Part shown: positions 8,009 to 62,093 of the stretch, piece by piece
How the letters are laid out: each line of letters begins with the position of its first letter
Position numbering within the stretch: the first letter of the stretch is position 1
Assembly (NCBI GenBank): GCA_965238175.1
Contig: CBDEGZ010000003.1
Coordinates: forward strand, 1,568,001 to 1,632,000
From: Gammaproteobacteria bacterium
GTDB taxonomy: Bacteria > Pseudomonadota > Gammaproteobacteria > CAJXQU01
Length of the DNA: 64,000 bases
Direction: 5' to 3'
Program-made: the position numbers and the translations under genes
Notes under the pieces: generated by a model
What the model saw: the letters and a program-made list of their open reading frames with translations, nothing else
Database searches by the model: none
What the model was told of the DNA's origin: nothing

Positions 8009-9022
8009 TTAGGCCGGTGAGTAGTCATCACCAGAAACCGTTATAGCCCAGGCCATTCTTGCCATTTTGTTGGCATACGCCACACACGCTCGATTATGCC
8101 CCCGCGTCTCAACTAAACGATTAATCCATTGACTCAGTTTATCGCCTTTCGTTTTGGCTCTTGATACCACGGCCTTCGCGCCTAGAATTAACAAACAACG
8201 AAGGTATTTATTGCCGCGTTTACTGATCCCCAGTAGCACCTCTTTACCACCACTACTGTACTGTCGTGGAACAAGTCCTAATGAGGCGGACACATCGCGC
8301 CCTTTGTGATAATGAGCGCCGTTTCCCACTTCATTAAAATACGCGCTCGAGACCATCGGCCCAAACCCTGGAATAGTTTGTAAGCGTTGGCAAATCGCAT
8401 TGTTTTTTGCCGATTGAATGATCAATTGGTCAAATGTCGCAATACAGGCATCAAGTGATTGCCATTGTTCCTTTAGCTGGCGCAGTATCCTTTTGAAAGT
8501 AACGGACAACCGTTCGTTCTCATCACTTAATAGCAACGGGATAGATTGACGTAGGGTATTTAGGCCGGGACGAAGGCTAATGCCATATTCTGCAACAAGC
8601 GCTCTCATTTGGTTACATAATGCGGTTCTTTGTCTGACCGCTAAGTCTCTTGCTTTATGTTGTGCCTGGTTGTCTTGTTGCTCAACTGATTTAATGCCCA
8701 CACTTTTTAAATGAGGTTGTTTCGCAGCAACGGCGATGGCCAAGGCATCGTTATAATCATTCTTATTGCCGATTAGAAATGCGTTAACATGCTGAGGTGG
8801 TAGTAATTTCACCTGATGTCCCTGTTGTTGTATCGCTCGGGCCCAATACTGTGACGTTGCACAAGATTCTATTGCGACTAAACAAGGAGGTTGAGATTGA
8901 AAAAAGGAGAGTACCTGCGCTCGCTTTAACATTTTCTTTTTGATTATACGCCCTTGTTGATTACAGCAGACAGCATGAAATACGTTTTTTGCTATGTCTA
9001 ACCCGATTGTTGTAGTCTTCAT
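8009..9022 (-). CDS. IS110 family recombinase/transposase
   Basis: IGLDIAK, IESC and KNDYNDA (DEDD RuvC-like domain) plus catalytic-serine motif YSSGGK. Probable start MKTTT at 9022 behind RBS AGAGGAG. Confidence 0.95.
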   Translation of the reverse strand: MKTTTIGLDIAKNVFHAVCCNQQGRIIKKKMLKRAQVLSFFQSQPPCLVAIESCATSQYWARAIQQQGHQVKLLPPQHVNAFLIGNKNDYNDALAIAVAAKQPHLKSVGIKSVEQQDNQAQHKARDLAVRQRTALCNQMRALVAEYGISLRPGLNTLRQSIPLLLSDENERLSVTFKRILRQLKEQWQSLDACIATFDQLIIQSAKNNAICQRLQTIPGFGPMVSSAYFNEVGNGAHYHKGRDVSASLGLVPRQYSSGGKEVLLGISKRGNKYLRCLLILGAKAVVSRAKTKGDKLSQWINRLVETRGHNRACVAYANKMARMAWAITVSGDDYSPA

Positions 9023-9165
9023 TTTGGTCTTCTCCTCTTTTGATTGTGTGTATGTCAGTTCAATCATGGCACCTAGATGCCGTTAGGGGGAGGAGACCAT
9101 CACATCAGGTTATGTTCGATCATAAGTCAGGGTAGTTTATAAACTTTTAGGTAATATATCGTGAT

Positions 9166-17364: not shown

Positions 17365-18005
17365 TGGAAGCTTTTACAACACTAAAAGGATTAGTAGTAT
17401 CGTTGGATCGGCCCAATGTAGATACGGATGCGATCATTCCTAAACAATTCTTGAAATCGATCAAACGAAGTGGTTTCGGCCCTAATCTTTTTGATGAGTG
17501 GCGTTATCTTGATCAGGGACAACCTGGACAAGATTGTAGTAATAGACCTTTGAATCCTGATTTTGTACTCAATCAGGACAGATACCAGGGTGCTCAGATT
17601 ATGTTGGGCAGAGATAATTTTGGCTGTGGATCGTCTCGTGAACACGCACCGTGGGCTTTTTATGATTATGGGATAAGCTGCATTATTGCCCCAAGCTTTG
17701 CGGATATTTTTCACAGCAACTCCTTTAAAAATGGTATCTTATTAGTAAAACTTGATTCAGAAACTATCGATCAATTATTCACAGAAGTTGAGATGATGTC
17801 TGGATATGAATTGGATGTGGATCTCGCATCACAAACGATCAAAACTCCGAGTGGTGAAGAGATTAAATTTGATGTTGATGGTTCCCTAAAACATCGGCTT
17901 TTGAATGGACTTGATGATATTGGTATTACCTTACAGCATGCCGATGAGATCAAAGCTTATGAGCAAAATAGAAACCAGCTAACGCCTTGGTTATTTAACG
18001 CGTAG
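17364..18005 (+). CDS. leuD: 3-isopropylmalate dehydratase small subunit
   Basis: [13 protein letters not shown] and [11 protein letters not shown] motifs. Confidence 0.98.
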
Positions 18006-19275
18006 ATTCATCTTCTGCTTTTTTAAAAAGCGGTAATCGATAGATCGTATTGATTGCGCCTGCAATGGCAACAAAAGCCAAAATTTTGATAACACCAACG
18101 GTAGAAAGCCCCCATTCACAGACTAAGACAGTCATTATCAGGAAGAAAAGCATCACAGTTGTTTGTATAAAGTTATAACCGGCTAAAACAATTCCCAGCT
18201 CACGTTCTTTTGCATGCAGCTGGATAAATGCGTTTAGCGGTACTATGAATAAACCTCCAAAAAAGCCAACTGAAAAAAAGTTAATGGCATGTGCTTCTGG
18301 TGAACTTAGAAAAGGAATAATTGCAATCGTTATCGCAATTCCAATTGATCCAATCAATACTAGCCCAGTTGCATTGTGATTCTCCGCATATTTGCCGGAG
18401 GTAATCGATCCAAACATTATTCCTATACCAGTACAGGCCATCATGCCCTGGATAATGATCGTATTCAGCATTTCCATCGTTTCTTTCGCAAATGCAGGAA
18501 AAGAGGCAAGCATTACCTGACAGATTGCCCAGAAGATAGACAAGCCAATAATTGATGTCCAAATGACTTTGTGATGAAAAACAAGACTGAGGTTTGTTTT
18601 TAGATAACCACCTCGTTTGTAGCGATCAAAATCAAAATGTAATTCTTCATAAACCTTCTTTTTTTGCGGAAGACGAAAAGTAAGTGCAAATTCGATGAGA
18701 GCACCAAGGATCAATGCCCAGCCGACCGGCGCGACTATTTTGATCAATTCTGATTTGTCTTGATAAGTCACACCTTTAAGCAGACTTTCAAATATGATCG
18801 AAAAGATGAATGTTCCAGATAATATCGCGATAATCGTTACTGCCTGAACAAGACCATTCGCAGATGATAGATATTTTTTGCCAACCAACTCACGAATAAA
18901 GCCGAATTTTGCTGGTGAATAAATCGCGCTTTGTACCGCCAGCAAGAATGTCATACTGAATGCTGCCCAAAAGTAGCCGAGGTAATAAAACAGGGTAATC
19001 AAGCAGGTTAAACAAACTGCAATAAAGGCACTGATTCTAATGACATTATTCTTCGGGTATTTATCAGCTAGAAATCCAGCAGGTGTGAACAGAAGAATGA
19101 AGGGTAATAAAATCAGCGCATTAACAATAGCAGTTAAGATTACTTGCTCTTGCCCATCATATGTTTTGAAAACGGTATTTTGGATAATGATCTTGTGGCC
19201 CAAATCAACAAAAGCGTTGAGAAAAACGACCAGTACATAGGGAAGAAATCCGATGATTTTAAACAGTTTGAGCAT
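17995..19275 (-). CDS. MFS transporter, lysophospholipid flippase LplT / Aas N-terminal-domain-like
   Basis: About 12 hydrophobic segments; [23 protein letters not shown] and QSAIYSPAK motifs. Probable start MLKLFK. Confidence 0.75.
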
Positions 19276-19441: not shown

Positions 19442-19729
19442 ATGAACTCACAAACAGACAAACTGGATCAAATATCCTGTTGGATCTACAGAAGTAATAG
19501 AAAAGAAGAGATGTACCTTTACCTTAGTAACAAAGATGATTTAGAAGAGGTGCCTGACGATCTACAGAAAAGACTTGGGGAACTGGATTTTGTTATGCAG
19601 TTGGAATTGTCTGAGCAACGTCAGTTAGCCAGAGCAGATGTCTCTGAGGTAATGAAAGCACTCTGTGACGAAGGGTATTATCTGCAAATGCCACCAAAAT
19701 TAATTCCTGATCTGCACTTTGGTGATTAA
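19442..19729 (+). CDS. ycgL: YcgL domain protein
   Basis: CWIYRS.RKEEMYLYL and GYYLQMPP motifs. Confidence 0.88.
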   Translation: MNSQTDKLDQISCWIYRSNRKEEMYLYLSNKDDLEEVPDDLQKRLGELDFVMQLELSEQRQLARADVSEVMKALCDEGYYLQMPPKLIPDLHFGD

Positions 19730-20612
19730 TAAGCTTTCAAATTTGATCGAGCAGTTTTTAGACACGGCCTGGTCTGAACAAGGTTTGAGTGATAACACAC
19801 TAAGTTCATATCGATCAGATCTGACATTTTTTGCGAAATGGCTTATTAGCAATGATAAGCAGGTCAAAGAAGTCGGTTGGCAGGATTTGTTGAGTTTCCT
19901 AGATCATTTTGAAAAGGCCTCTCCGCGTAGTCGCGCACGTCGTTTGACCAGCTTGCGACGATTTTATCGATTTTTGATCCGTGAAGAATTGGTAGAAGAT
20001 GATCCTACCCGTCGACTTAAAACTCCTAGAGCAGGGCGCAGCCTTCCTAAAACTTTATCAGAAGATGAGGTTGAGGCTTTATTAACAGCTCCAAATATAG
20101 AAAAAACTTTAGGTTTACGTGATAAAGCTATGATTGAATTGCTTTATGCGACGGGATTACGTGTGTCAGAATTAGTTAATCTGACCATGCAAGAGATTAA
20201 TTTAAACCAAGGTGTTGTACGAATTACCGGTAAGGGCGATAAGGAAAGAATCGTTCCAGTAGGTGAGGAAGCTGTTCATTGGTTGGAAAGTTATCTGGAA
20301 GAAGCACGTTCTGATTTACTCAAAGGTCAAGTTTCGGATGCCTTATTCCCAGCTCGGCAGGGAAAGCCAATTGGCCGACATGCGTTCTGGCACCGAATTA
20401 AGCAACATACGACAACTGCAGGCATTGATAAATCGATATCACCTCATACATTACGACATGCTTTTGCCACGCATTTACTAAATCATGGTGCAGATCTAAG
20501 AGTGGTTCAAATGCTTTTAGGTCATCGAGATATTTCAACAACACAGATCTACACACACGTTGCACAAGCAAGATTACAAAATTTACACGCAGCCCATCAT
20601 CCAAGAGCATAA
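19719..20612 (+). CDS. xerD: Site-specific tyrosine recombinase XerD
   Basis: LYATGLRVSELV, HTLRHAFATHLLNHGADLR and TTQIYTHV motifs. Confidence 0.96.
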   Translation: MVINKLSNLIEQFLDTAWSEQGLSDNTLSSYRSDLTFFAKWLISNDKQVKEVGWQDLLSFLDHFEKASPRSRARRLTSLRRFYRFLIREELVEDDPTRRLKTPRAGRSLPKTLSEDEVEALLTAPNIEKTLGLRDKAMIELLYATGLRVSELVNLTMQEINLNQGVVRITGKGDKERIVPVGEEAVHWLESYLEEARSDLLKGQVSDALFPARQGKPIGRHAFWHRIKQHTTTAGIDKSISPHTLRHAFATHLLNHGADLRVVQMLLGHRDISTTQIYTHVAQARLQNLHAAHHPRA

Positions 20613-24613: not shown

Positions 24614-25680
24614 CGCGTCCCGCTCGTGTTGTCATTGATCTAAACGCCTTCCGGTCAAACCTACAAACCACTAGAAAATATGCGCCAGATCAAAAAGTCA
24701 TGGCGATAATCAAAGCCGATGCTTATGGTCATGGTTTGGAACGCGTCGCAAATCAGCTTGGTGATGCAGATGCTTTTGGTGTCGCCTGTCTCGAAGAAGC
24801 TATTCGATTACGTACTGCTGGATTCACAAAACCGATCATCTTGTTGGAAGGATTTTTCTCTGCTGAAGAATTAGATCAGCTTTCAGAACTTAATTTGCAA
24901 ACTGTTATTCACCAGAATAATCAACTCGAATTGATCGAAAAACTTCCTGCCGATAAAGCAATTAATGTCTGGCTCAAAATTGATACCGGAATGCATCGCT
25001 TAGGATTTGATCTGGATCTTGTTTCTTCCGTTTTTAGCCGATTAAAAAAAGCAAAAGGTGCTGATCAAATAAAGTTAATGACGCACTTTGCTTCTAGCCA
25101 GCCAGACTCGATGGAATCTCAATTAGCTAATTTTTTTAAGGTTGTGTCTGATCTAGAAGGCGAGCATTGTCTGGCAAATTCGGGCGCCATTATAGAATGG
25201 TCCGCAGCTCATGGTGATTGGATCCGCCCCGGTTTGATGCTTTATGGTGTTTCACCATTTGTTGACCAAACTGGAGTAGAACTTGGTTTAAAACCCGTCA
25301 TGTCACTACATTCAGAATTGATCTCAGTGAAGCAGGCTAAAAAGGGCGAAAAAGTCGGCTATGGTGGAACATGGGAATGCCCTGAAGATATGCCGATTGG
25401 TGTTATTGCCATGGGTTATGGCGATGGCTACCCACGTCATGCACGTTCTGGGACACCGATGTTGATCAATAATCAAACCGCTGGACTCATCGGGCGACCA
25501 TCAATGGATATGCTGACCGTCGATTTGCGTCAATGTCCCGATGCAAAGATTGGTGATCCCGTGATACTTTGGGGTGAAGACTTGCCTGTCGAAGAGATTG
25601 CTCGTTGTGCTGAGACAATTCCTTATGAATTACTTTGTGGTATGCGTATGCGCGCCCGATTTGTTGAGATAAATGGCTAA
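24610..25680 (+). CDS. alr: Alanine racemase
   Basis: IKADAYGHG, DTGMHRLG and GYGDGYPR motifs. Confidence 0.97.
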   Translation: MTRPARVVIDLNAFRSNLQTTRKYAPDQKVMAIIKADAYGHGLERVANQLGDADAFGVACLEEAIRLRTAGFTKPIILLEGFFSAEELDQLSELNLQTVIHQNNQLELIEKLPADKAINVWLKIDTGMHRLGFDLDLVSSVFSRLKKAKGADQIKLMTHFASSQPDSMESQLANFFKVVSDLEGEHCLANSGAIIEWSAAHGDWIRPGLMLYGVSPFVDQTGVELGLKPVMSLHSELISVKQAKKGEKVGYGGTWECPEDMPIGVIAMGYGDGYPRHARSGTPMLINNQTAGLIGRPSMDMLTVDLRQCPDAKIGDPVILWGEDLPVEEIARCAETIPYELLCGMRMRARFVEING

Positions 25681-27040
25681 ACAAAAAAAACAATATGAAT
25701 GTCAGTCTTGCGGTGCGGTTAGTCCAAAATGGGCAGGGCAGTGCGGCGATTGTGGTGAATGGAATAGCCTGACAGAATCGATCATCGTTCAAGCGACGGC
25801 GACAAATGATCGTATTGGAAATTACAGCGGCAGTGCACCGGCGATCTGCAATCTTGATGAGGCCGACTTAACCGAGGAAATCCGCTATACCACCCATATT
25901 GAAGAATTAGATCGTGCCATGGGAGGCGGGTTAGTTACAGGATCGGTGATTCTGATCGGCGGTGATCCGGGTATCGGCAAATCCACATTATTACTGCAAC
26001 TGCTTGCTGCAATCTCTAAAGATCAGATGAAAACGCTTTATGTCAGCGGTGAAGAATCTGCCCGACAAGTGGCAATGCGCGGCAAACGACTAGTGCTGGA
26101 TCTGACCGATTTGCGCCTTCTTACAGAAACCAATGTCGAACGGATCCTGACTACCGCACAGAAGGAAATGCCTAAAGTGATGGTGATCGATTCAATACAA
26201 ACGATCCATACAGAACAACTCTCATCAGCGCCAGGTAATGTTGCTCAAGTTAGAGAAAGCGCCGCCAAGATTGTGCGTTTTGCAAAACAAACCGGAACGA
26301 CTATTTTACTGGTTGGTCATGTCACAAAAGACGGTGCACTTGCAGGCCCTCGTGTGTTGGAGCATATGGTTGATACCGTGCTCTATTTTGAAGGTGATAG
26401 CGGCAGTCGTTTCCGCTTAATTCGGGCGATCAAAAACCGTTTCGGTGCAGTCAATGAACTGGGTGTTTTTGCCATGACCGATACTGGTTTAAAAGGCGTA
26501 AATAATCCCTCGGCTATCTTTTTATCCCGACGTGAAGACGAAGCCTCAGGTAGCGTGGTGATGGTGACGAGAGAAGGCACACGTCCGTTAATGGTTGAAG
26601 TTCAGGCCTTAGTTGATGAATCAAAAGCAGGTAATCCAAGGCGTGTCGCAGTAGGGATGGATCAAAATCGACTTGGAATGTTGCTGGCCGTATTGCATCG
26701 ACATGCCGGGATAGCCACTTATGATCAAGATGTGTTTATTAATATCGTAGGTGGCGTTCGGATCACAGAAACCGGTGCTGATCTGGCTGTTATACTGGCG
26801 ATTTTATCAAGCTTAAGGAATCAACCTTTGCCAACAGATTTGATCGTCTTTGGTGAAGTCGGTTTAACCGGCGAACTACGCCCAGTCCAAAATGGTCAGG
26901 AAAGACTTAACGAGGCACAAAAGCATGGCTTTAAACAAGCAATAGTTCCGAAAGCGAATCTTCCAAAGCAAAAAATAAAAGGGATCGAAATAAAAGGGGC
27001 GGCTACTTTAGATGCGGCGCTTGGTTTTTTGAGGGGTTAG
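25673..27040 (+). CDS. radA: DNA repair protein RadA/Sms
   Basis: C4 zinc finger, GDPGIGKST and KNRFG motifs. Confidence 0.98.
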   Translation: MAKQKKQYECQSCGAVSPKWAGQCGDCGEWNSLTESIIVQATATNDRIGNYSGSAPAICNLDEADLTEEIRYTTHIEELDRAMGGGLVTGSVILIGGDPGIGKSTLLLQLLAAISKDQMKTLYVSGEESARQVAMRGKRLVLDLTDLRLLTETNVERILTTAQKEMPKVMVIDSIQTIHTEQLSSAPGNVAQVRESAAKIVRFAKQTGTTILLVGHVTKDGALAGPRVLEHMVDTVLYFEGDSGSRFRLIRAIKNRFGAVNELGVFAMTDTGLKGVNNPSAIFLSRREDEASGSVVMVTREGTRPLMVEVQALVDESKAGNPRRVAVGMDQNRLGMLLAVLHRHAGIATYDQDVFINIVGGVRITETGADLAVILAILSSLRNQPLPTDLIVFGEVGLTGELRPVQNGQERLNEAQKHGFKQAIVPKANLPKQKIKGIEIKGAATLDAALGFLRG

Positions 27041-27383
27041 TCTTAATAGTAGTTCAATAAGAATGTAGCTAGTTGTCCCAATGAATGCTCGCCATAACCA
27101 CGGGTTTTATCGTTCAAAATAATTCCACCAAGATTAACTATATATTTCTCAAAAACTATCTCCTTAGCAGATTGATTATTTTGGTTTTACTTCGGAAGCT
27201 TCCATCTTTAAAAATACACAGATTTCCTGAACGTCAAAATACATAGGAAATTGTAAAGTTTGTTTAACTGTCTATCATCGCCCCTAGATATGGGAGAGGA
27301 TAAGTGAAAGTACTAAAAATAGTCTAGAGCATTGTACGAAGGGTGCTATCAATCAAACTGAAACAAAATCTAAGGAAGTTAAA

Positions 27384-27842
27384 ATGTATAGAAAACTAGT
27401 GTTAATTACTTTTGTGTCATTTTTATTCACAGGTTGTGCCTCAGTCCCTATGGAAAGTACTGATAGAACCGATACTGTAAAGGAGTTTAATTCACCTTCA
27501 GACAAAAGTGCAGGGTTGTATATCTACCGATCAGGCGGTTTCGGAGGATCCTTAAAAAAGGATATCTGGATTGACGGAGAATGCCTTGGTGAAACGGCTC
27601 CTAACGTTTTCTTCTATGAAGAAGTTCAAGGTGACGGAGAACATAAACTCTCTACAGAATCTGAATTTTCACCTAATGATTTGGTGATTAAAACAGAAAG
27701 TGGTAAGAATTACTTCGTTAAGCAATATATTAAATTCGGTTTGTTTGTTGGAGGTGCAGGTCTAGAACAGGTTGACGAAGAAGAGGGTAAAAAGGCCGTA
27801 GAGAAATTGAAGCTAGCTAAAAAAGGTAACTGTAGTAAATAA
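27384..27842 (+). CDS. DUF2846 family lipoprotein
   Basis: Lipobox FTGC; LYIYR...STESEFSPN...KQYIK.G.FVGGA. Confidence 0.8.
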   Translation: MYRKLVLITFVSFLFTGCASVPMESTDRTDTVKEFNSPSDKSAGLYIYRSGGFGGSLKKDIWIDGECLGETAPNVFFYEEVQGDGEHKLSTESEFSPNDLVIKTESGKNYFVKQYIKFGLFVGGAGLEQVDEEEGKKAVEKLKLAKKGNCSK

Positions 27843-28053
27843 TATGAGGGGCTGTTTTAAAATATATAGTCTCGATGTTCAATATATGTCGCAAAGACAT
27901 ACAATAATTTTTTGACCTTGCTGCATCCTTTATTCAGTATTGTTGGCTTACGCGAGAATAAGCCTACCTAGTCGCCCCTTAATAAACCAGAATTACTCCG
28001 AAGATGATTTGCAGGAATGCATATTTCACTTTTATCTCCATTACTTTTATGCC

Positions 28054-28193
28054 TAACATCTATTCTATGGAATCATTCCAAAATATATCTCGATAAGTGA
28101 CAGTAATTGTCACAACTATTAAGTAATGTGAATAGCTATATTGAGCCGATAATGACCTTCAAGACTGCACTAAAAAGGGTCGGTTTTGGTGCA
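28054..28193 (-). repeat. 140-bp attI-like unit, copy A
   Basis: 116/140 identical, ungapped, to 29325-29464. On the minus strand it ends in core site GTTAGGC. Confidence 0.8.
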
Positions 28194-28250
28194 CTGAATT
28201 TAAGGCGGCTTACGAGAAAAAGCAGAGACTTTTAACGGTTGAGCCACCTG

Positions 28251-28688
28251 TTAACTGTTTGCATCTACTTTAGCCCTGAACGACACAGGAAAACCATTAA
28301 ACTGTACGCCATTTTGATAAAGAAACATCATTCCATAGACTGCGCTTGCCGACTTTCCTGATCCGGAAAGCTTCCAGCCAGATAGAACCAATTTGTATCT
28401 GATGCCAAATTCACCATCGTGATATTCAATAAGAACAATATCGTCAAGAATTTTCATATTCTCTGGCTTGGAATAAACAGCGATAACCTTACCATCTTTG
28501 GATTTGCGGGAAAATTTCGTGGAGTTATCTTGTGAGATAACTAACTTTTGTTTTTCACCTTTCACCACCACATAGCTCGACACCCAATCTCCAATCAATC
28601 CATTAGGCACAATTGGGCGAGTGGTACTTTTTTCAGCTATAACTGAAAAAGAAACCATCAATATAAGTAATATTCGAATCATGGTCAT
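28251..28688 (-). CDS. Gene-cassette-encoded exported hypothetical protein
   Basis: Signal peptide. Bounded by GTTAACTG upstream and complementary CAGTTAAC overlapping the stop codon. Confidence 0.75.
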   Translation of the reverse strand: MTMIRILLILMVSFSVIAEKSTTRPIVPNGLIGDWVSSYVVVKGEKQKLVISQDNSTKFSRKSKDGKVIAVYSKPENMKILDDIVLIEYHDGEFGIRYKLVLSGWKLSGSGKSASAVYGMMFLYQNGVQFNGFPVSFRAKVDANS

Positions 28689-28690
28689 AC

Positions 28691-28760
28691 AGTTAACGTC
28701 GCAATAAAAGGCGCGCGCCTTTTGCGCGTCCAGCCCACGCCTTTTATTGCTTTGTTATGA
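28691..28760 (-). other. attC recombination site (70 bp)
   Basis: Minus strand reads TCATAAC-aaa-GCAATAAAAGGCG...CGCCTTTTATTGC-gac-GTTAACT: inverse core, 13-bp inverted arms and core, between two co-oriented ORFs. Confidence 0.85.
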
Positions 28761-28769
28761 GTTTTAAAT

Positions 28770-29306
28770 TCAAACATTTCTACCAAACCAATTTAGGCTT
28801 TTAGTGTATGGTGAAAAATTGGTTTCATAGACATCTGTATATATTACTGTACAGCTTAATTCCTTTAACCATACCCTGCATAAATCACGGGCTTCTGAAA
28901 AATTTGAATCATCTTTAGCTTCTGTAAGCTCCAATAATGGAATAAAGTCACCCGGCATAATTGAGCGGTTATTTAAATCAGTTGCAAAGTGCGTCCATGG
29001 TCTATTCTCTGGCAGTTTCCTCATCCACTTAACTATATCGGACTTTGATTCAGCCCCTTTTGTTACTGTAAGGCTCTTGATAATAAGTGGGCCAGAGCCA
29101 CGGAGGCTATTTTCATAATCAGCAACTGTTATTTCTGGTATTGGTGAAACCGACAAAGTGTTGTTTTTTTTCTGATGCTTAAGGGAAGTGACGGAAACAT
29201 AAATAGAAATCGATGATGCTAACAATGCTAAAAAAGCAATAATCACCCTCATTGTTGCCGCCAAGGCACTAGCTACACTAGTATTTTCAATTAGAAATTC
29301 ATACAT
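28770..29306 (-). CDS. Gene-cassette-encoded hypothetical membrane-anchored protein
   Basis: N-terminal transmembrane segment. Bounded by GTTATGAG upstream and complementary CTCATAAC 8 bp after the stop; RBS TAAGGA. Confidence 0.75.
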   Translation of the reverse strand: MYEFLIENTSVASALAATMRVIIAFLALLASSISIYVSVTSLKHQKKNNTLSVSPIPEITVADYENSLRGSGPLIIKSLTVTKGAESKSDIVKWMRKLPENRPWTHFATDLNNRSIMPGDFIPLLELTEAKDDSNFSEARDLCRVWLKELSCTVIYTDVYETNFSPYTKSLNWFGRNV

Positions 29307-29324
29307 AATGATTCCTTAGACTCA

Positions 29325-29464
29325 TAACATCTATTATATGGAACCATTCCAGAATATACCTCGATGAATGACAATAATTGTCACAACTGCTAAGTAATGT
29401 GAATGGCTACATTAACCTGATAGAAGCCATCCAGACTGCACCAAAAGGGTTTGGTTTTGGTGCA
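29325..29464 (-). repeat. 140-bp attI-like unit, copy B
   Basis: Direct repeat of 28054-28193. Ends in GTTATGA directly ahead of the first cassette. Confidence 0.8.
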
Positions 29465-29554
29465 TCAATCCATAACTTTCTAAACCCTTGATTTTGTTAT
29501 AACTGGACTGCACTAAAAGCGTGGTGCAAAACTGATACATTAAATTTAATGTTG

Positions 29555-30298
29555 TTACCGTTGACTTAAAACTTCAATCAATAGCTTCTTAACCTGCTGC
29601 ATGCCTTTTTCAAGATGCTGTTCAATTTGTTTCATTGAGATCTCTTTTTCGCCGTTTCGCCCAGCTGCTGGGTTTACAATAACTGCACAAGTTGCGTAAG
29701 AAAGATCGAGTTCTCTTGCTAGCGCCGCTTCTGGCATGCCGGTCATTCCGACCATGTCACAACCGTCTTTTTCCATGCGATCAATTTCTGCGGCGGTTTC
29801 TAGTCGCGGGCCTTGTGTGGCGCCGTAGGTGCCACCATTTGAAATATCGATCTTTGCATGTTTTGCTGCTTTGATTATTTTTGATCTTAATTTTTCATTG
29901 TAGGGATGAGTAAAGTCAATATGTACGACTTCGCCTTTATCGCCATCATAAAAGGTATTTTGACGGCCAGCGGTATAGTCAATAATTTGATCAGGAATGG
30001 CCAGGCGGGAAGGTGTTAGTTCAGCAGTTATTCCACCAACGGCAGCAATGCTGATCACTTCGGAAATGCCGATTTCTTTTAATGCCCAGATATTTGCGCA
30101 ATAGTTGATCATGTGAGGTGGGATGGTATGACCCGCACCGTGTCTCGGCAAAAAAACGACTTCTTTACCCTTATGTTCACAAAAGGTGAGTGGTCCTGAA
30201 GGTTCTCCGAAAGGGGTGCGCATCACACGTCTTTTTAGGATATTAATCCCTTCGAGTTTGTTTAAGCCGGTACCGCCGATGATTGCTAGATCTGTCAT
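29555..30298 (-). CDS. mtaP: S-methyl-5'-thioinosine/thioadenosine phosphorylase
   Basis: IIGGTG, PRHG..H.IPPH, QGPRLETAAE and VGMTGMPEA motifs. Confidence 0.92.
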   Translation of the reverse strand: MTDLAIIGGTGLNKLEGINILKRRVMRTPFGEPSGPLTFCEHKGKEVVFLPRHGAGHTIPPHMINYCANIWALKEIGISEVISIAAVGGITAELTPSRLAIPDQIIDYTAGRQNTFYDGDKGEVVHIDFTHPYNEKLRSKIIKAAKHAKIDISNGGTYGATQGPRLETAAEIDRMEKDGCDMVGMTGMPEAALARELDLSYATCAVIVNPAAGRNGEKEISMKQIEQHLEKGMQQVKKLLIEVLSQR

Positions 30299-30587
30299 TT
30301 TATAGATTCTATTTTTAAGTAAGCTCTAGTTTAACGTTTTCAACGTTATTGTGTAGTTTACTGTTGATGGAAAAAGCTCAACCCATTGGAATATTTCTCT
30401 CATTTACTGAAAATTTAAAAATGGTGCTTAGTTTTTTTTTATTGTGGCCGATAGTAGTTCTATGACCTTCAGTTTTATAGGTTCAAAAATGATCAAAACA
30501 GTATGAAATCGCAGTACATTTGATCCTGAAACTGAATTTAATTCACAATTTTTATTTATAAACAGTTAGTTATGATCAGTATTTGGT

Positions 30588-44221: not shown

Positions 44222-44644
44222 TCAATGTTCTATGGATTTTGTCCAGTCATCCAGGCTTAAATGATGCTTCAAATTATAAAATGCCTTGTCATTGGTGATT
44301 AATAAAGCGCCCACAGCAACAGAATGGGCTGCAATCAACATATCCATTGTGCCGAGGGGCTTGCCTTCATTTTCACAGGTTGTTCTTAATTGTGCATAGG
44401 TTTTCGCTGTATCAGAATCCCAGGGCAGGATTTCCACCCTTAACAAGAACTCTTTAACAGCAATAGGAAGATGCTTAGCTTCAGGTTTTCTGGCGACGCC
44501 TCGAAGCAACTCGGCTTCTGTTATCACGGAGATGCAGACATGGGCCATAGATACCTTGAGCAGATGCTCTCTTATAATTACCGGTTCACCTTTGATGATG
44601 TAACTGGCAGTATTGGTGTCAAGCATATAACGTTGATTTTCCAT
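44222..44644 (-). CDS. vapC: VapC PIN-domain toxin
   Basis: YMLDTN, TEAEL, MDMLIAAH and LITND motifs. Confidence 0.93.
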   Translation of the reverse strand: MENQRYMLDTNTASYIIKGEPVIIREHLLKVSMAHVCISVITEAELLRGVARKPEAKHLPIAVKEFLLRVEILPWDSDTAKTYAQLRTTCENEGKPLGTMDMLIAAHSVAVGALLITNDKAFYNLKHHLSLDDWTKSIEH

Positions 44645-48044: not shown

Positions 48045-49353
48045 ATGAATGTAGTGATGATAGGATCTGGGTATGTTGGTCTGGTTTCGGGGACATGTTT
48101 TGCAGAGTTCGGTGTAAATGTCACCTGTGTCGATGTCGATGAAAATAAGATCGCTCGTCTAGAAGAAGGCGAAATTCCAATTTATGAGCCTGGTTTAAGT
48201 GACTTGGTGAAGAAAAATGTCGAAGATGGTCGCTTACATTTTTCAACGGAACTTAAAGATAATGTAGGTAATGCTGATCTAATATTTATTGCTGTTGGTA
48301 CACCGACACGCCGTGGAGATGGTCATGCAGATCTAAAATATGTCTACAGTGCGGCTGAAGATATCGCAAAGTATCTGCAGGGTTACACTGTCATAGTCGA
48401 TAAATCTACGGTTCCTGTGGGCACTGCAAGGAATGTTGAACGCGTTATTCGTGCAACAAATCCTGAAGCAGACTTTGACGTAGCATCGAATCCGGAATTT
48501 TTACGCGAAGGTGCGGCAATTTCAGATTTTATGCGACCTGACCGAGTGGTAATTGGTGTTGAAAGTGATCGTGCAGAAGCATTATTAAGAGAACTTTACC
48601 GCCCGATCAATTTGATTGAAGCTCCTATCATGAAGACTGATCTAGAAAGTGCAGAATTGATCAAATACGCATCAAACGCGTTTCTTGCCACCAAGATTAG
48701 TTTTATCAATGAAATGTCGATGCTCTGTGAAGCGATTGGGGCAGATGTTCATGCCGTCGCAAAAGGGATGGGGTTAGATGGGCGAATTGGTAGAAAAATT
48801 TTTACATGCAGGGCCTGGCTATGGCGGATCATGTTTTCCAAAGGATACCCAAGCTCTTGTAAGAATTGCTCAAGAACATGGCGTTTCTTCACGTATAGTT
48901 GAAACTGTTATCGAAGTTAATGCTGCTCAAAAAGCGAGAATGATCAAAAAAATAAGAACTGCATTAGGCGGTAATGAAGCAGGAAAAACAATTGCAGTGT
49001 TTGGTCTTACATTCAAACCTGAAACAGATGACATGCGTGATTCACCTGCGCTTTCTATTCTGCCAACATTAATCGAAAAGGGTGCCATGATAAAAGCTCA
49101 TGATCCAAAAGGGATCGAAGAAGCAAAGCATCTACTGCCCAAACAAGTCATATACTGTGAAGAACCGATGGATGCAATCAAAGGTGCTGATGCAATTGTC
49201 CTAATGACAGAATGGAATGTATATCGTGGATTGAATCTTGAGAAATTACGAGAACAAATGAAGGGCAATGTATTCGTTGATCTGAGAAATGTATACGAAG
49301 CAGAACAGATGAAAAAAGCAGGGTTTGATTACCATTGTGTTGGGCGAGCATAA
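48045..49353 (+). pseudogene. ugd: UDP-glucose 6-dehydrogenase split by a +1 frameshift (or sequencing error)
   Basis: GSGYVG...SNPEFLREG in ORF 48045-48902 and GYGGSCFPKD in ORF 48778-49353. One extra base in the A5T5 run at 48794-48803. Confidence 0.88.
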
Positions 49354-53259: not shown

Positions 53260-54359
53260 AAAAGGAAATAAGAATTTTAGCACTTGTGACAGATGCATTT
53301 GGTGGAGATGGAGGGATTTCACAATACAATCGTGATTTATTAACGGCTGTGTCATCACTAGATGTAGTAAAGGAAGTGATTGTGTTGCCGAGGTTGGGTT
53401 TACCTGATCAACCAGTACCTACAAAGATTAAAAACCTACCCGCTACTTTCAATCGACTTTTTTATACGTTTAAATCACTCAAGCTGATACTCAGTGAAGG
53501 TCCATTTGATGTGATATTTTGTGGTCACTTAGCGCATGCGTCATTAGCAGCAGTCTTATCAAAATTGACAAAAACACCAATTTGGTTGCAATTGCATGGG
53601 ATAGAGGCATGGACTTGTCCCTCACGATTATATCGTTGGGGAGTTGAACAGTCTGATTTGGTGACAGTAGTTAGTCGATATACAAAATTTCGATTTTCTA
53701 ATTGGGTTAACTTGTCGCCGGAAAAGATTAGAGTGTTGTCTAATACAGTATCAGAAATTTATATGCCAGGTGAAAAATCTGAAACCTTGATCAAGAAATA
53801 TGATCTTCACGACAAAAAGGTTCTTTTAACTGTTTCAAGAATTTCAAAAGCAGATAGATACAAAGGACATGACCGCGTCATCTCAGCATTAGCAAAAATC
53901 AAAAATAACATTCCGAATATAATTTATCTAATAGCAGGTTTGGGAGATTCTATGGATGACCTTAAGGCACTGGCGAAGAGTAAAGGAGTTGAACAAATCG
54001 TTAAATTCGTAGGTAGAGTTGATAACGAGGAGTTACCTGACTTATATCGTACAGTTGATGTCTTTGTTATGCCAAGCACAAATGAAGGGTTTGGGATCGT
54101 TTTCTTGGAAGCGATGCGATCTGGAATCACAACCGTGAGTGGTAATGTAGATGGCAGTGTTGATCCATTACAAGATGGTGACGCAGGTTACACCGTTTCT
54201 GGCACTAATGAAGATGTCCTAGTAGAAACAATCAAAGCAGCATTGAACTCTCCTATAGATGGCACACCTTATGCTCAAAAGTTTAGTATAAGAGCATTTT
54301 CAGAACATGCTAACCGGTTATTAATACAATTGATCAATCAACCTTCTAGTAACCAATAG
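53256..54359 (+). CDS. Glycosyltransferase family 4
   Basis: YKGHD and EGFGIVFLEA motifs; start overlaps the asnB stop (ATGA). Confidence 0.92.
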   Translation: MKKEIRILALVTDAFGGDGGISQYNRDLLTAVSSLDVVKEVIVLPRLGLPDQPVPTKIKNLPATFNRLFYTFKSLKLILSEGPFDVIFCGHLAHASLAAVLSKLTKTPIWLQLHGIEAWTCPSRLYRWGVEQSDLVTVVSRYTKFRFSNWVNLSPEKIRVLSNTVSEIYMPGEKSETLIKKYDLHDKKVLLTVSRISKADRYKGHDRVISALAKIKNNIPNIIYLIAGLGDSMDDLKALAKSKGVEQIVKFVGRVDNEELPDLYRTVDVFVMPSTNEGFGIVFLEAMRSGITTVSGNVDGSVDPLQDGDAGYTVSGTNEDVLVETIKAALNSPIDGTPYAQKFSIRAFSEHANRLLIQLINQPSSNQ

Positions 54360-54369
54360 AGCGAAAATT

Positions 54370-55917
54370 ATGTTATTTATTTATTTGTTTTCAATAATTG
54401 TCCCACTTAGTTTAGTCCTTATTGGTTTTCCTCAGGCGCGAGACTGGTTGCTTGATCATTGGCAACTCGAAGAATATAGCCATGTCATTTTATTACCCGC
54501 AGTAGGGGTTTATCTTCTATTACAAAATAGCGAAAAGTTTTCGATAGATAAAAAGATAAACCGTTCAATTGGTTTTTATATTATTATCGTTTCAATATTT
54601 ATCTTGCTCCTTTCACACTATGGGCAAATGATCAGCTTTTACGGTTATGCATTGTTATTATTGTGTTACGGCACTTATATCAGTGTGTTGGGTTGGGATT
54701 CTTTCAAGAAGAACTGGCCAGCAATGGTTATTTTGTTTTTTGCAGTGCCATTCCCATCAATTTTATTCAATAGTATCTCCACACAATTACAATTAATGTC
54801 CTCATCAATCGGCTCGTCTATTATTAGAGCATCTGGGATCAGTGTTTATCAGAATGGCAATATTATCGATTTGGGTACGATACAACTGGAAGTTGTCGAA
54901 GCCTGCGCGGGTTTACGATATCTATTTCCGTTAATGACGGTTGGCTTCATTGTCGCTGTATTTTACAAAGCATCACTGACCAGAAAGTGGATAATATTTT
55001 TATCTAGTATTCCGATCACGATCATCATTAACAGCCTTCGAATTGCCATGATCGCCATACTTCTGGAATATGCAAATATCGATACGACGACAGGTTTTAT
55101 TCACGATTTTGAAGGTTGGATCATGTTTATGCTGGCAATGGCCATATTGTTATTTCTTGCATCATTTATGACATGGTTTTCCGGTCAAAAACGAGGTTGG
55201 CGTGATGTTATTGAAATAGAACCGCTCGATTTATCGAAAAGTAGGTTAATCAAGTTATTTACACTGACGCCTAATGTTTCAATTCCTCTAATTGCATTAA
55301 CAGTACTATTTACTATGCTGTTAATCACATCACCTTTTTTACCAGAACGGAAAATAATACAACCAGACCGAGAGTTATTTTCAACCTTTCCTACAGCACT
55401 AGGAACTTGGGAAGGAAGGCATTTGGAAATGGAGGAAATTTATAAAAATGCCTTACCGTGGAATGACTATCTCTGGATGGACTTTACCAATCCTCAGGGA
55501 GCACATATCAGTCTTTTCATACCATATTTTGATTCACTATATAAAGATTCATATGCACATAACCCAAGTGTATGCCTACCGGGGAATGGTTGGACGATTG
55601 AGAATGATCAGGAACTCATTATTAAAAATTCGCAAAATGGTGCAGAGATGAAAGTTAACCGACTTGAAACAAAAGTAGGTGGGAAGAACAACCTAGTTTA
55701 TTACTGGTTTCAACATTATGGTTCTAGTCTAGCCGATCAGAAATTGGTCAAACCGGTTCTACTTTGGAATTCAATTACAAAAGGTAGAGCAGATGGCGCA
55801 CTGGTCAGACTAATTCTCGATCTTGATAAGCTACCAAGTAATGTGAGTCCAGAAGATTTGATCAAAGATATGATTGATCAAATCAATATTGTATTACCTA
55901 ACTATGTGCCGGACTAA
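54370..55917 (+). CDS. xrtD: Exosortase fused to an EpsI domain (XrtD-like)
   Basis: EYSH, VVEACAGLRYLFPL, NSLRI and HDFEGW (C/R/H triad); EpsI motifs HNPSVCLPGNGW, YYWF and GRADGALVR. Confidence 0.82.
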   Translation: MLFIYLFSIIVPLSLVLIGFPQARDWLLDHWQLEEYSHVILLPAVGVYLLLQNSEKFSIDKKINRSIGFYIIIVSIFILLLSHYGQMISFYGYALLLLCYGTYISVLGWDSFKKNWPAMVILFFAVPFPSILFNSISTQLQLMSSSIGSSIIRASGISVYQNGNIIDLGTIQLEVVEACAGLRYLFPLMTVGFIVAVFYKASLTRKWIIFLSSIPITIIINSLRIAMIAILLEYANIDTTTGFIHDFEGWIMFMLAMAILLFLASFMTWFSGQKRGWRDVIEIEPLDLSKSRLIKLFTLTPNVSIPLIALTVLFTMLLITSPFLPERKIIQPDRELFSTFPTALGTWEGRHLEMEEIYKNALPWNDYLWMDFTNPQGAHISLFIPYFDSLYKDSYAHNPSVCLPGNGWTIENDQELIIKNSQNGAEMKVNRLETKVGGKNNLVYYWFQHYGSSLADQKLVKPVLLWNSITKGRADGALVRLILDLDKLPSNVSPEDLIKDMIDQINIVLPNYVPD

Positions 55918-60924: not shown

Positions 60925-61236
60925 ATGACCAGCAACAGAAAACCATACAAAACCTATACCCGAGAATTCAAACTAGAAGCGTTACGCTTGATGGAGCAAT
61001 CAGATAAACCGTCATCTGAGATTGCCGCTGAACTTGGTATACGGCGTAATCAGCTCTATAAATGGAAAGAACAACTGACCGACAAAGGTGATACTGCATT
61101 CCCAGAACAACGTGGAAGGCCTAAGAAAGAAGCACAAAGTGAACTCACCACCTTACGCCAAGATAATGCACGGCTGAAGGAGGAAGTTGAGATATTAAAA
61201 AAGGCCGCGGTGTACTTTGCAGGCGAACTCAAGTGA
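60925..61236 (+). CDS. IS3 transposase OrfA
   Basis: YTREFKLEA helix-turn-helix and EILKKAAVYFA. A_AAA_AAG -1 slip site at 61197-61203 with SD-like AAGGAGG upstream. Confidence 0.93.
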   Translation: MTSNRKPYKTYTREFKLEALRLMEQSDKPSSEIAAELGIRRNQLYKWKEQLTDKGDTAFPEQRGRPKKEAQSELTTLRQDNARLKEEVEILKKAAVYFAGELK

Positions 61237-62093
61237 AGTACGCCTTTATTAAAATACAACGTCGCCATCACTCTGTGTCGTTATTATGTCGCACCCTGAC
61301 TGTCTCAGTCAGTGGTTATTATGATTGGTTAGACAGGCCTCAAAGTAAGACACACTCAACGAATCAACGGTTACTGACGAAAATAAGATGTTTTCATCAA
61401 GCTAGTTTTAAGCGTTATGGTTCACCTCGGATACATCGAGACCTACTCGATTCAGGTGAAAAAGTAAGTCGACCGCGTGTTGCACGTTTGATGAAGACTG
61501 CTGGCATTCAATCGAAGATGGCCAAACGGTTTGTGATTACAACCAATTCAAAAAATACCACAGCACCTGCACCCGATAGGCTCAAACGTGAATTTCGTGT
61601 CAATGAAACAAATAAAGCCTGGGTAGCTGACACGACCTTTATTCGTACTCGGCAAGGTTGGTTATATTTGGCTACCATGATGGACTTGTATTCACGGCAA
61701 ATTATTGGCTGGGCGATGTCTGAGCGTAATGACACCAAGCTAGTCACTGATGCGTTAACGATGTCGCTGTCACGCAGAGACAAGGCAAAAGATGTGATTG
61801 TCCATTCCGACCAAGGCAGCACTTATGCCTCGGGTGATTATCGAAAGCTCATTAAAGATAATGGCTTCCTTTGTAGTATGAGCCGAAAAGGTGAATGCCA
61901 TGATAATGCGGTCGCTGAAAGTTTCTTCGGCAGCCTCAAAACAGAGTTGGTTGATGATGAGGATTATCGAACACGTAGCGATGCCAAACAAAGCCTATTT
62001 CACTATATTGAAGTGTTTTATAATCGAAGACGGAGGCATTCTTATTTAGGCTATGTTAGCCCTGTAGAATTTGAGCGGGCAAATGCCCCTTAG
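61233..62093 (+). CDS. IS3 transposase OrfB (DDE)
   Basis: YGSPRI, WVADTT, HSDQGS and DNAVAESFF motifs. Confidence 0.95.
   Translation: MKYAFIKIQRRHHSVSLLCRTLTVSVSGYYDWLDRPQSKTHSTNQRLLTKIRCFHQASFKRYGSPRIHRDLLDSGEKVSRPRVARLMKTAGIQSKMAKRFVITTNSKNTTAPAPDRLKREFRVNETNKAWVADTTFIRTRQGWLYLATMMDLYSRQIIGWAMSERNDTKLVTDALTMSLSRRDKAKDVIVHSDQGSTYASGDYRKLIKDNGFLCSMSRKGECHDNAVAESFFGSLKTELVDDEDYRTRSDAKQSLFHYIEVFYNRRRRHSYLGYVSPVEFERANAP

Follow-up and report, generated by a model that had tools for sequence, protein, structure and literature searches.

A duplicated unit of 137 nt, with integron cassettes beside it and no integron integrase gene (intI) within reach, is present on the minus strand of the DNA analysed here, a stretch of 64,000 nt (the window) that covers positions 1,568,001 to 1,632,000 of contig CBDEGZ010000003.1 (GenBank assembly GCA_965238175.1) from a gammaproteobacterial genome, G000. 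The cassettes are real integron cassettes. The unit would, in the explanation favoured here with moderate confidence, be an attI-like platform without an integrase, at the head of a mini cassette array that was loaded in trans in the past, the platform itself being derived from the spacer between intI and attI of an integron. A preliminary description of this DNA had gone further and presented the locus as a repeated, possibly mobile, stand-alone landing pad for cassettes.

The two copies of the unit, both on the minus strand, are unit B at 29328-29464 and unit A, the second platform copy, at 28057-28193. In reading order there is a hairpin, two palindromes, an AT-rich spacer, and then the crossover G, which is at 29328 in unit B and is part of the G|TTAGGC (28051-28057) into which unit A runs. 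That the copies are duplicated without gaps, with a similarity that stops just past the GTTA core, is confirmed: 28040-28193 and 29311-29464 are 81% identical over 154 nt (83% over 140 nt in a second alignment), and 113 of 137 positions are identical from the start of the hairpin to the crossover G, as against only 7 of the next 12, all similarity being gone beyond G|TTA. The three internal palindromes that had been described for each unit are likewise found in both copies. These are the TGCACC..GGTGCA hairpin (29437-29464 in unit B, 28166-28193 in unit A), a TGACA palindrome (TGACAATTATTGTCA at 29369-29383 in unit B, where it has the form TGACA-N5-TGTCA, and GTGACAATTACTGTCAC at 28097-28113 in unit A) and TGGAATG(G/A)TTCCA (29339-29351 and 28068-28080, respectively). 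There are three matches to the hairpin motif in a regex search of the whole genome, all of them at this locus. Two belong to the units, while the third is a short copy upstream of unit B, h0 (TGCACCACGCTTTTAGTGCA, 29509-29528, minus strand), which is also present in a sister species, G002, and which is perhaps what is left of a third copy of the unit.

Cassette 1 (28697-29327, minus strand), with TTATGAG as its first bases, starts at the crossover of unit B and contains an open reading frame (ORF) of 178 codons, ORF178 (28770-29306), and an attC site (28691-28760) that ends in G|TTAACTG. It is followed by cassette 2 (28198-28696, minus strand), with TTAACTG as its first bases, which contains ORF145 (28251-28688) and a degraded attC. 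The opening of cassette 1, GTTATGAG (29321-29328), and its close, the R'' box CTCATAAC (28754-28761), are perfectly complementary 8-mers, as are GTTAACTG (28690-28697) and the R'' box CAGTTAAC (28250-28257), which open and close cassette 2.

The attC sites were assessed with a covariance model, for which 13 attC sites from the array of the integron resident elsewhere in this genome were picked by fold criteria and aligned. Its consensus has the R''/R' and L''/L' pairing, with compensatory changes in 7 of 12 pairs. A scan of 120 kb, in which the window was joined by the locus of G002 and by 40 kb from the resident region, returned 30 matches at E <= 10, 28 of which are in the resident array, including the 13 training sites. 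The attC of cassette 1 scores 22.9 bits (E 0.004 in 120 kb; 23 bits and E 1e-4 with the filters off), and a weak match at 54020-54072 (15 bits, E 0.44) is taken as chance. Folded as single-stranded DNA, the site of cassette 1 takes up a canonical attC structure, made of TAAC/GTTA, a spacer of 3 nt, and a stem of 13 bp; its energy of -20.9 kcal/mol (z -5.2) was matched by none of 200 shuffles. One attC of the resident array shares 84% identity with it over 61 nt. Cassette 1 therefore has what identifies an integron cassette, an attC with R'' and R' boxes of the forms RYYYAAC and GTTRRRY and paired L''/L', and first bases (TTRRRY) complementary to its own R'', and the junctions of the type made by the integrase IntI that had been reported from the letters are upheld, with an attC in the family of the resident array.

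For cassette 2 the rest of the attC had been said to be missing. This needs correction: the R' box is degenerate (CTTAAAT) and the site scores only 4.7 bits with the model, but R'' and an 8-bp stem (-7.5 kcal/mol, 6 of 200 shuffles as good) persist, and the site is degraded rather than absent. Neither cassette protein has a family match above noise in Pfam, NCBIfam, or PADLOC. ORF178 has one N-terminal hydrophobic stretch, and its atlas neighbours are hypothetical proteins of Pseudomonadota; the N-terminus of ORF145 is signal-peptide-like by eye.

The cassette locus is a 2.5-kb block inserted between the convergent genes radA (25673-27040, plus strand, identified with Pfam) and an MTAP-like gene of the purine/methylthioadenosine phosphorylase family (29555-30298, minus strand; Pfam PNP_UDP_1, E 6.9e-41), the latter being conserved in all six other genomes of the genus. 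In two of these relatives, G006 and G001, the genes are tail to tail and less than 30 nt apart, and ORF178, ORF145, and a DUF2846 gene (27384-27842, plus strand; Pfam DUF2846, E 1.6e-22) are each found in none of the six, which identifies the block as an insertion. The DUF2846 gene, within this species-specific insertion, is absent from the G002 locus as well, and it has no detected attC next to it. In G005, radA and the MTAP-like gene are separated by about 900 nt of different sequence, and in G003 and G004 there is no radA match within the stretch fetched beside the MTAP-like gene.

A BLAST search with the unit was made against 61 genomes: G000, the six others of the genus, and 54 others of the class. 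It is found only in G000 and G002, that is, in one of the six other genus genomes. The single full unit of G002 is orthologous, in the identical chromosomal place straight after the MTAP-like gene, and from its GTTATG onward there are unrelated ORFs of 92 and 111 aa. These are followed by the same 8-mer that closes cassette 1, CTCATAAC, and then by part of a hairpin, 97% identical over 31 nt to that of unit A, which means that two platform copies predate the split of the species, the cargo between them being different today in G000 and G002. In a three-way alignment of unit A, unit B, and the G002 unit, similarity is lost right after GTTA(T/G)G. Unit B leads into ORF178, the G002 unit into the unrelated 92-aa ORF, and unit A into a hydrophobic ORF of 16 codons (27979-28029, minus strand), read from the sequence, which has a GTG start behind a GGAG and is present as first described, its 'decay' being an interpretation. 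It had been proposed to check whether each copy is followed by a different cassette at the GTT; all three copies do run into different sequences from one G|TT, and the boundary between conserved platform and variable cassette at G|TT that characterises an attI is seen in all three.

There is no further copy of the unit in G000, where the two units are the only significant ones of 16 matches at E <= 10, nor is there any in the 54 further genomes of the class. An exact search with the tail pattern over 185,579 species genomes (one representative each) found the G002 contig and one Bacillota contig taken as chance, and in metagenomes the exact hairpin pattern had 0 matches and the tail pattern one AT-rich contig without the unit; such exact-pattern scans miss diverged copies. 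BLAST against plasmids and phages did not find the unit. The preliminary description, which had called the unit repeated and possibly mobile, had itself named occurrence at this place only as a result that would speak against it, and a single locus is what the searches of the genome and its relatives show. The unit is a local relic in two sister species and not an independently mobile element.

Elsewhere in the genome, 579 kb from the cassette locus, there is an intI (C3:2175053-2175916; TIGR02249, 396.5 bits against a cut-off of 265), the sole match over this cut-off in G000. Within the region L034 (G000:C3:2157000-2176999) it occupies 17969-18917 (+), and its array is on the minus strand beside it, with at least 28 attC-model matches over approximately 17.5 kb. 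Six of the seven genus genomes, G000 included, have an intI. The IntI of G000 is 70% identical to that of G070, 66% to that of G166, and 61% to that of G157, but only 50% to that of its genus mate G001, in a comparison that gave matches at E <= 1e-40 in 149 of the 401 genomes of the class. G070 belongs to another family of the class, which has only two genomes, and the identities suggest that the resident integron platform was acquired horizontally.

Two whole copies of the intI-attI platform are present in each of G006 (L038/L041), G005 (L040/L042), and G070 (L048/L079). The members of each pair are near-identical up to the crossover, and their first cassettes differ. Both intI copies of G005 contain a TAA stop. 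The attI regions of the resident integron (L034 17733-17790) and of G070 (L048, ~2640-2690) have in common a near-perfect palindrome of 27-31 nt, GTTAT..ATAAC. It has a GGA..TCC palindrome at its centre, directly precedes the crossover, and is in effect a small hairpin within attI. Further attC-model matches in G000 form an 11-kb cluster without intI (C3:2017024-2028160, +), and there are single sites at C3 1289369-1289440 (+) and 706418-706486 (-).

It is the end of the unit that is similar to these attI regions. Local alignment of the 250 nt between the MTAP-like gene and the crossover with the resident intI-attI spacer pairs TTCCATATAATAGATGTTATG with TTCCTTATAATAATGTTATG, which is exactly the tail of the unit, at a score of 30, where the null is 19.4 +/- 2.8 and 3 of 500 shuffles reach the score. 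When 25 intI-upstream regions were scored, one of them L058 from the unpublished genome G045, a non-match, the top two were those of the resident integron (30) and of G070 (24), both on unit positions 127-150. The GTTAT of the tail is inside the best alignment for 5 of the 25. The full spacers of the cassette locus (239 nt in G000, 231 nt in G002) score z 2.5 and 2.9 against the G070 intI-attI spacer, values reached by 4 and 2 of 300 shuffles, respectively; the resident spacer against that of G070 scores z 5.4.

The layout of the tail, a short palindrome, a spacer, and GTTA, is also seen by eye in the attI sites of G001, G005, G006, and G157, while the contig of G166 ends 125 nt past intI and its attI is not visible. 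A GGAA-N3-TTCC followed by GTTA within 6-14 nt occurs six times in the chromosome, three of which are the two units and the resident attI, with a common spacer, and a palindrome with 5-bp arms 8-14 nt upstream is found at 70 of the 2527 GTTAKG sites of the genome (2.8%). From these alignments, the tail of the unit is probably an integrase site of the resident attI family. In the comparison with the attI beside the intI of the genome, which the preliminary description had called for, some 25 nt are alike, all of them in the tail.

Several observations weigh against this explanation. What resembles attI is a short segment, and the statistics behind it are modest: aligned globally, the resident spacer gives no significant score (z 1.3 and 0.7), and in a genome-wide short-word BLAST with the resident 43-mer unit B only ties for first among the non-self matches, at E 0.59. 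The hairpin of the unit and TGACA-N5-TGTCA have no counterpart in any attI examined, and the unit does not have the GTTAT..ATAAC palindrome that precedes the proven crossover. Up to ...ATAACAGGCTGTTAGG both platforms of G070 are nearly the same, and they diverge only there, at a second GTT 31 nt further on, which means that the tail-like segment is not the proven crossover of that attI family; the R'' of the first resident cassette also fits the second GTT site, by eye. Just one attC at the cassette locus passes the model, and at the G002 locus none does, the two good attC sites of G002 being on a different contig. Elsewhere in G000, the attC clusters at 2.017, 1.289, 0.706, and 2.359 Mb have no head like the unit or like attI, and the approximately 90 nt between the MTAP-like gene and unit B leave no room for a remnant of intI.

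The enzyme presents a further difficulty, in G000 as in G002. The resident intI is split over two frames, with the junction near codon 50 at a T5 run, whether by a real frameshift or by an indel of the assembly, and no intI was found in the 98% complete genome of G002. The trust to be placed in the frameshift is affected by a UDP-glucose 6-dehydrogenase in the window that is similarly split, by a frameshift or an assembly indel, over the overlapping ORFs 48045-48902 and 48778-49353 (+), which cover profile positions 4-251 and 248-431 of 439.

If the unit is such a platform, unit B would be the head of the array and its last ~25 nt (TGGAA-N3-TTCCA, the AT-rich spacer, and G|TT) would be bound by IntI as an attI-type integrase site. 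An integron integrase encoded elsewhere in the genome, for which the resident intI is the sole candidate in G000, would have placed folded attC cassettes into the G|TT of unit B. The resulting order would be platform, newest cassette (ORF178), and older cassette (ORF145), and the further platform copy downstream of cassette 2 would be unit A. As for the platform, its most likely ancestor is the intI-attI spacer of an integron that has since lost intI. Today the array is probably idle, given that intI is seemingly broken in G000 and was not found in G002, and this would explain the survival of an attI-cassette-attI arrangement, since such an arrangement is reported to be excised at >97% in PMC12901181.

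Two origins may be envisaged for unit A, a 3' site of the ΔattI type or a tandem duplication before G000 and G002 separated. Cassette 2 keeps its R'' and stem and is then followed by a full copy of the platform that ends in G|TTAGGC, although cassette 2 and unit A would merit the label of a ΔattI-type cassette only if the unit is an attI. A motif of 17-19 nt, GCTT(T/A)TTCTCG..TAAGCC, is found at 28207-28223 before unit A and again after the 16-codon ORF, in the weak hairpin at 27945-27965, and is a possible trace of a tandem duplication of the platform plus its cargo. Between h0 and unit B there is a TTATAAC..(17 nt)..GTTATGG skeleton (29470-29502, minus strand; a weak attC-model match of 9.4 bits, E 0.28), which is possibly a collapsed recombination site; it is not conserved, G002 having ATAGC..TTGTGG at the equivalent place.

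A fuller version of this history can be put forward tentatively. In it, an attI-type platform uncoupled from its integrase would have stayed at one site since before the species split, its cassettes being exchanged by way of a distant integrase, with the hairpin and the operator-like palindrome making an insulated expression module and the tandem copies a readily excised unit. That the hairpin is an insulator and the palindrome an operator-like element are guesses.

The main rival to the attI-like platform, itself unlikely, is that the cassettes were inserted off target. The unit would then be unrelated DNA, such as a terminator-promoter module brought in by a previous insertion, the cassettes would have landed at its GTT as at an attG site, and the likeness to attI would be due to chance. 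According to Loot et al. (bioRxiv 10.1101/2022.09.11.507474), IntI1-3 insert at 5'-GWT-3' sites, some hotspots being used at near attI frequencies, and lone attC sites without an integrase are common, with 3400 single sites compared to 2961 clusters. A lone cassette needs no attI, and the single attC passing the model, the genome-wide E of 0.59, and the placement of the tail-like segment in G070 are all compatible with off-target insertion. On the other hand, a preferred site would be indicated by a single G that was used two or three times in succession in two species, the tail has its best matches among the 25 intI-upstream regions in the resident integron and in the nearest relative of that integron, only 2.8% is the base rate of the palindrome-spacer-GTTA layout, and the unit is not native to the spacer between radA and the MTAP-like gene.

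It is improbable that the units are an ordinary local duplication, in which an intergenic or regulatory segment of 150 nt was copied in tandem, the GTTA is coincidental, and only ORF178 and its attC are derived from an integron. The confinement of the unit to one locus would be consistent with this, as would the repeated GCTT(T/A)TTCTCG..TAAGCC before unit A and after the short ORF and a weak sigma-70-like site in unit B (29403-29374, TTCACA-18-AATTAT), though the region has no excess of promoter-like sites (3 against an expected 6.1 +/- 2.7). A duplication of this kind would not account for a similarity that ends at one G|TTA in three copies, including the G002 orthologue with its different cargo, nor for cassette 1 starting exactly at G|TTA with the complement of its own R'', nor for a tail like that of an attI region.

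The full claim of a repeated, mobile, self-spreading, stand-alone landing pad distinct from the known integrase-less clusters is close to refuted: despite two full copies and a short hairpin copy at one locus, a (G/C)TTA within ~10 nt before each unit that could be a crossover-like boundary, and the duplicated intI-attI platforms of G005, G006, and G070, there is no other copy in the genome, the one genus relative that has the unit carries it at the identical chromosomal site, and the searches of the class, the genome collection, metagenomes, plasmids, and phages gave no true match.

Other identities for the unit and the locus were considered and rejected. The unit is not a giant attC, as it forms three separate local hairpins without R''/R' or L''/L' pairing and reaches no more than 6.2 bits with the attC model, nor is it a known structured RNA, there being no Rfam match at E <= 1 in 27000-30500. 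An element that exploits the Xer recombinases at dif (IMEX) is ruled out by position, with the GC-skew maximum at 2.11 Mb and the best dif-like site at C3:2116004 (2 mismatches to the consensus), about 520 kb from the locus. The resident integron and the large orphan attC cluster are both within ~100 kb of the terminus.

Among known systems, the locus is closest to those named CALINs, which are clusters of attC sites that have no integron integrase (Cury et al. 2016, PMC4889954), and SALINs, which are single attC sites of this kind (Loot et al., bioRxiv 10.1101/2022.09.11.507474). It is not a complete integron, as there is no intI beside an attI and array, nor formally a CALIN, for which at least two attC sites without a nearby intI are needed, as the model accepts one attC only, the other being degraded; this fits a SALIN. 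As in these elements, there are cassettes with attC, no intI within reach, and an integron elsewhere in the genome, and for 95% of CALINs no pseudogene of intI is reported nearby (PMC4889954). The difference is that a conserved platform, which has the crossover G as its end and resembles an attI region, is kept upstream of the first cassette. The definitions as given in PMC4889954 and bioRxiv 10.1101/2022.09.11.507474 leave attI out, attI being unknown for most integrons. The preliminary description had set the locus apart from CALINs, and the presence of the platform is the sole distinction that is left of what is formally a single-attC element.

The idea that the duplication is new is also to be given up, as an attI-type site on both sides of a cassette has already been published for integrons of classes 1 and 2 (PMC12901181). 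In the ΔattI-type cassettes described by Gonzales Machuca et al. (2026, PMC12901181), and by Partridge et al. as cited there, the attC is replaced by part of attI, as in attI1-ΔaacA4-attI1 and a 244-nt ΔattI2, and these recombine with IntI1. Most are said in that account to retain only 14-18 nt of attI and to be inside complete mobile integrons with intI. Cassette 2, with its R'' and stem and with the entire platform repeated after it, is similar in form, but the locus is chromosomal, without an integrase and without resistance genes, and the identity of the unit as an attI would follow from its likeness to the resident site.

With the sedentary chromosomal attI sites of the genus and of G070 and G157 the unit shares a short palindrome, ~10 nt of AT-rich spacer, and G|TTAT(G), as well as platform copies that agree up to the crossover and differ beyond it. 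It differs from them in having no adjacent intI, in its unmatched hairpin and TGACA palindrome, and in a tail that aligns upstream of the proven crossover of the G070 type. With the attG sites of Loot et al. it shares cassette insertion outside an integron at G|WT, with expression from nearby promoters possible, whereas an attG is native genome sequence unlike the att sites and the unit is itself part of the insertion and attI-like. The most fitting label for the locus is a SALIN-like orphan array in which an attI-like platform is kept, with a ΔattI-like second copy, and so as a variant of CALINs/SALINs and of ΔattI cassettes.

As had been noted, there is no intI in the window, and in a scan of the window ORFs of at least 100 aa the sole tyrosine recombinase is XerD (19719-20612). 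Downstream of the 16-codon ORF there is a weak hairpin, AGGCTTATTCTCGCGTAAGCC (27945-27965, minus strand), whose fold is not better than that of shuffled sequence (33 of 200 as good). Some members of the IS110 family of insertion sequences (IS) target attC sites; a transposase of this family (8009-9067, minus strand; NF033542, 302.6 bits) is 19 kb from the cassette locus, and no link between the two is seen. Also present are an ORF for a VapC-family toxin (44222-44644, minus strand), the VPLPA-CTERM exosortase XrtD (54370-55917, plus strand) in a polysaccharide gene cluster, and an IS3-family transposase (61233-62093, plus strand). Among the contigs of four sequencing runs that were compared with this DNA, those of one run contain the entire stretch and may be its source, and those of the other three contain only fragments of conserved genes.

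The importance of the locus is limited by its restriction to one small lineage, by an enzyme that is seemingly inactive or absent, and by an attI assignment made on a short likeness. Integron surveys score intI and attC but not attI. If the explanation preferred here, an attI-like platform without an integrase, is true, some orphan arrays would keep a working entry site and one integrase may serve several arrays in trans, and the ΔattI/attI-flanked architecture of clinical integrons of classes 1 and 2 would extend to environmental chromosomes.

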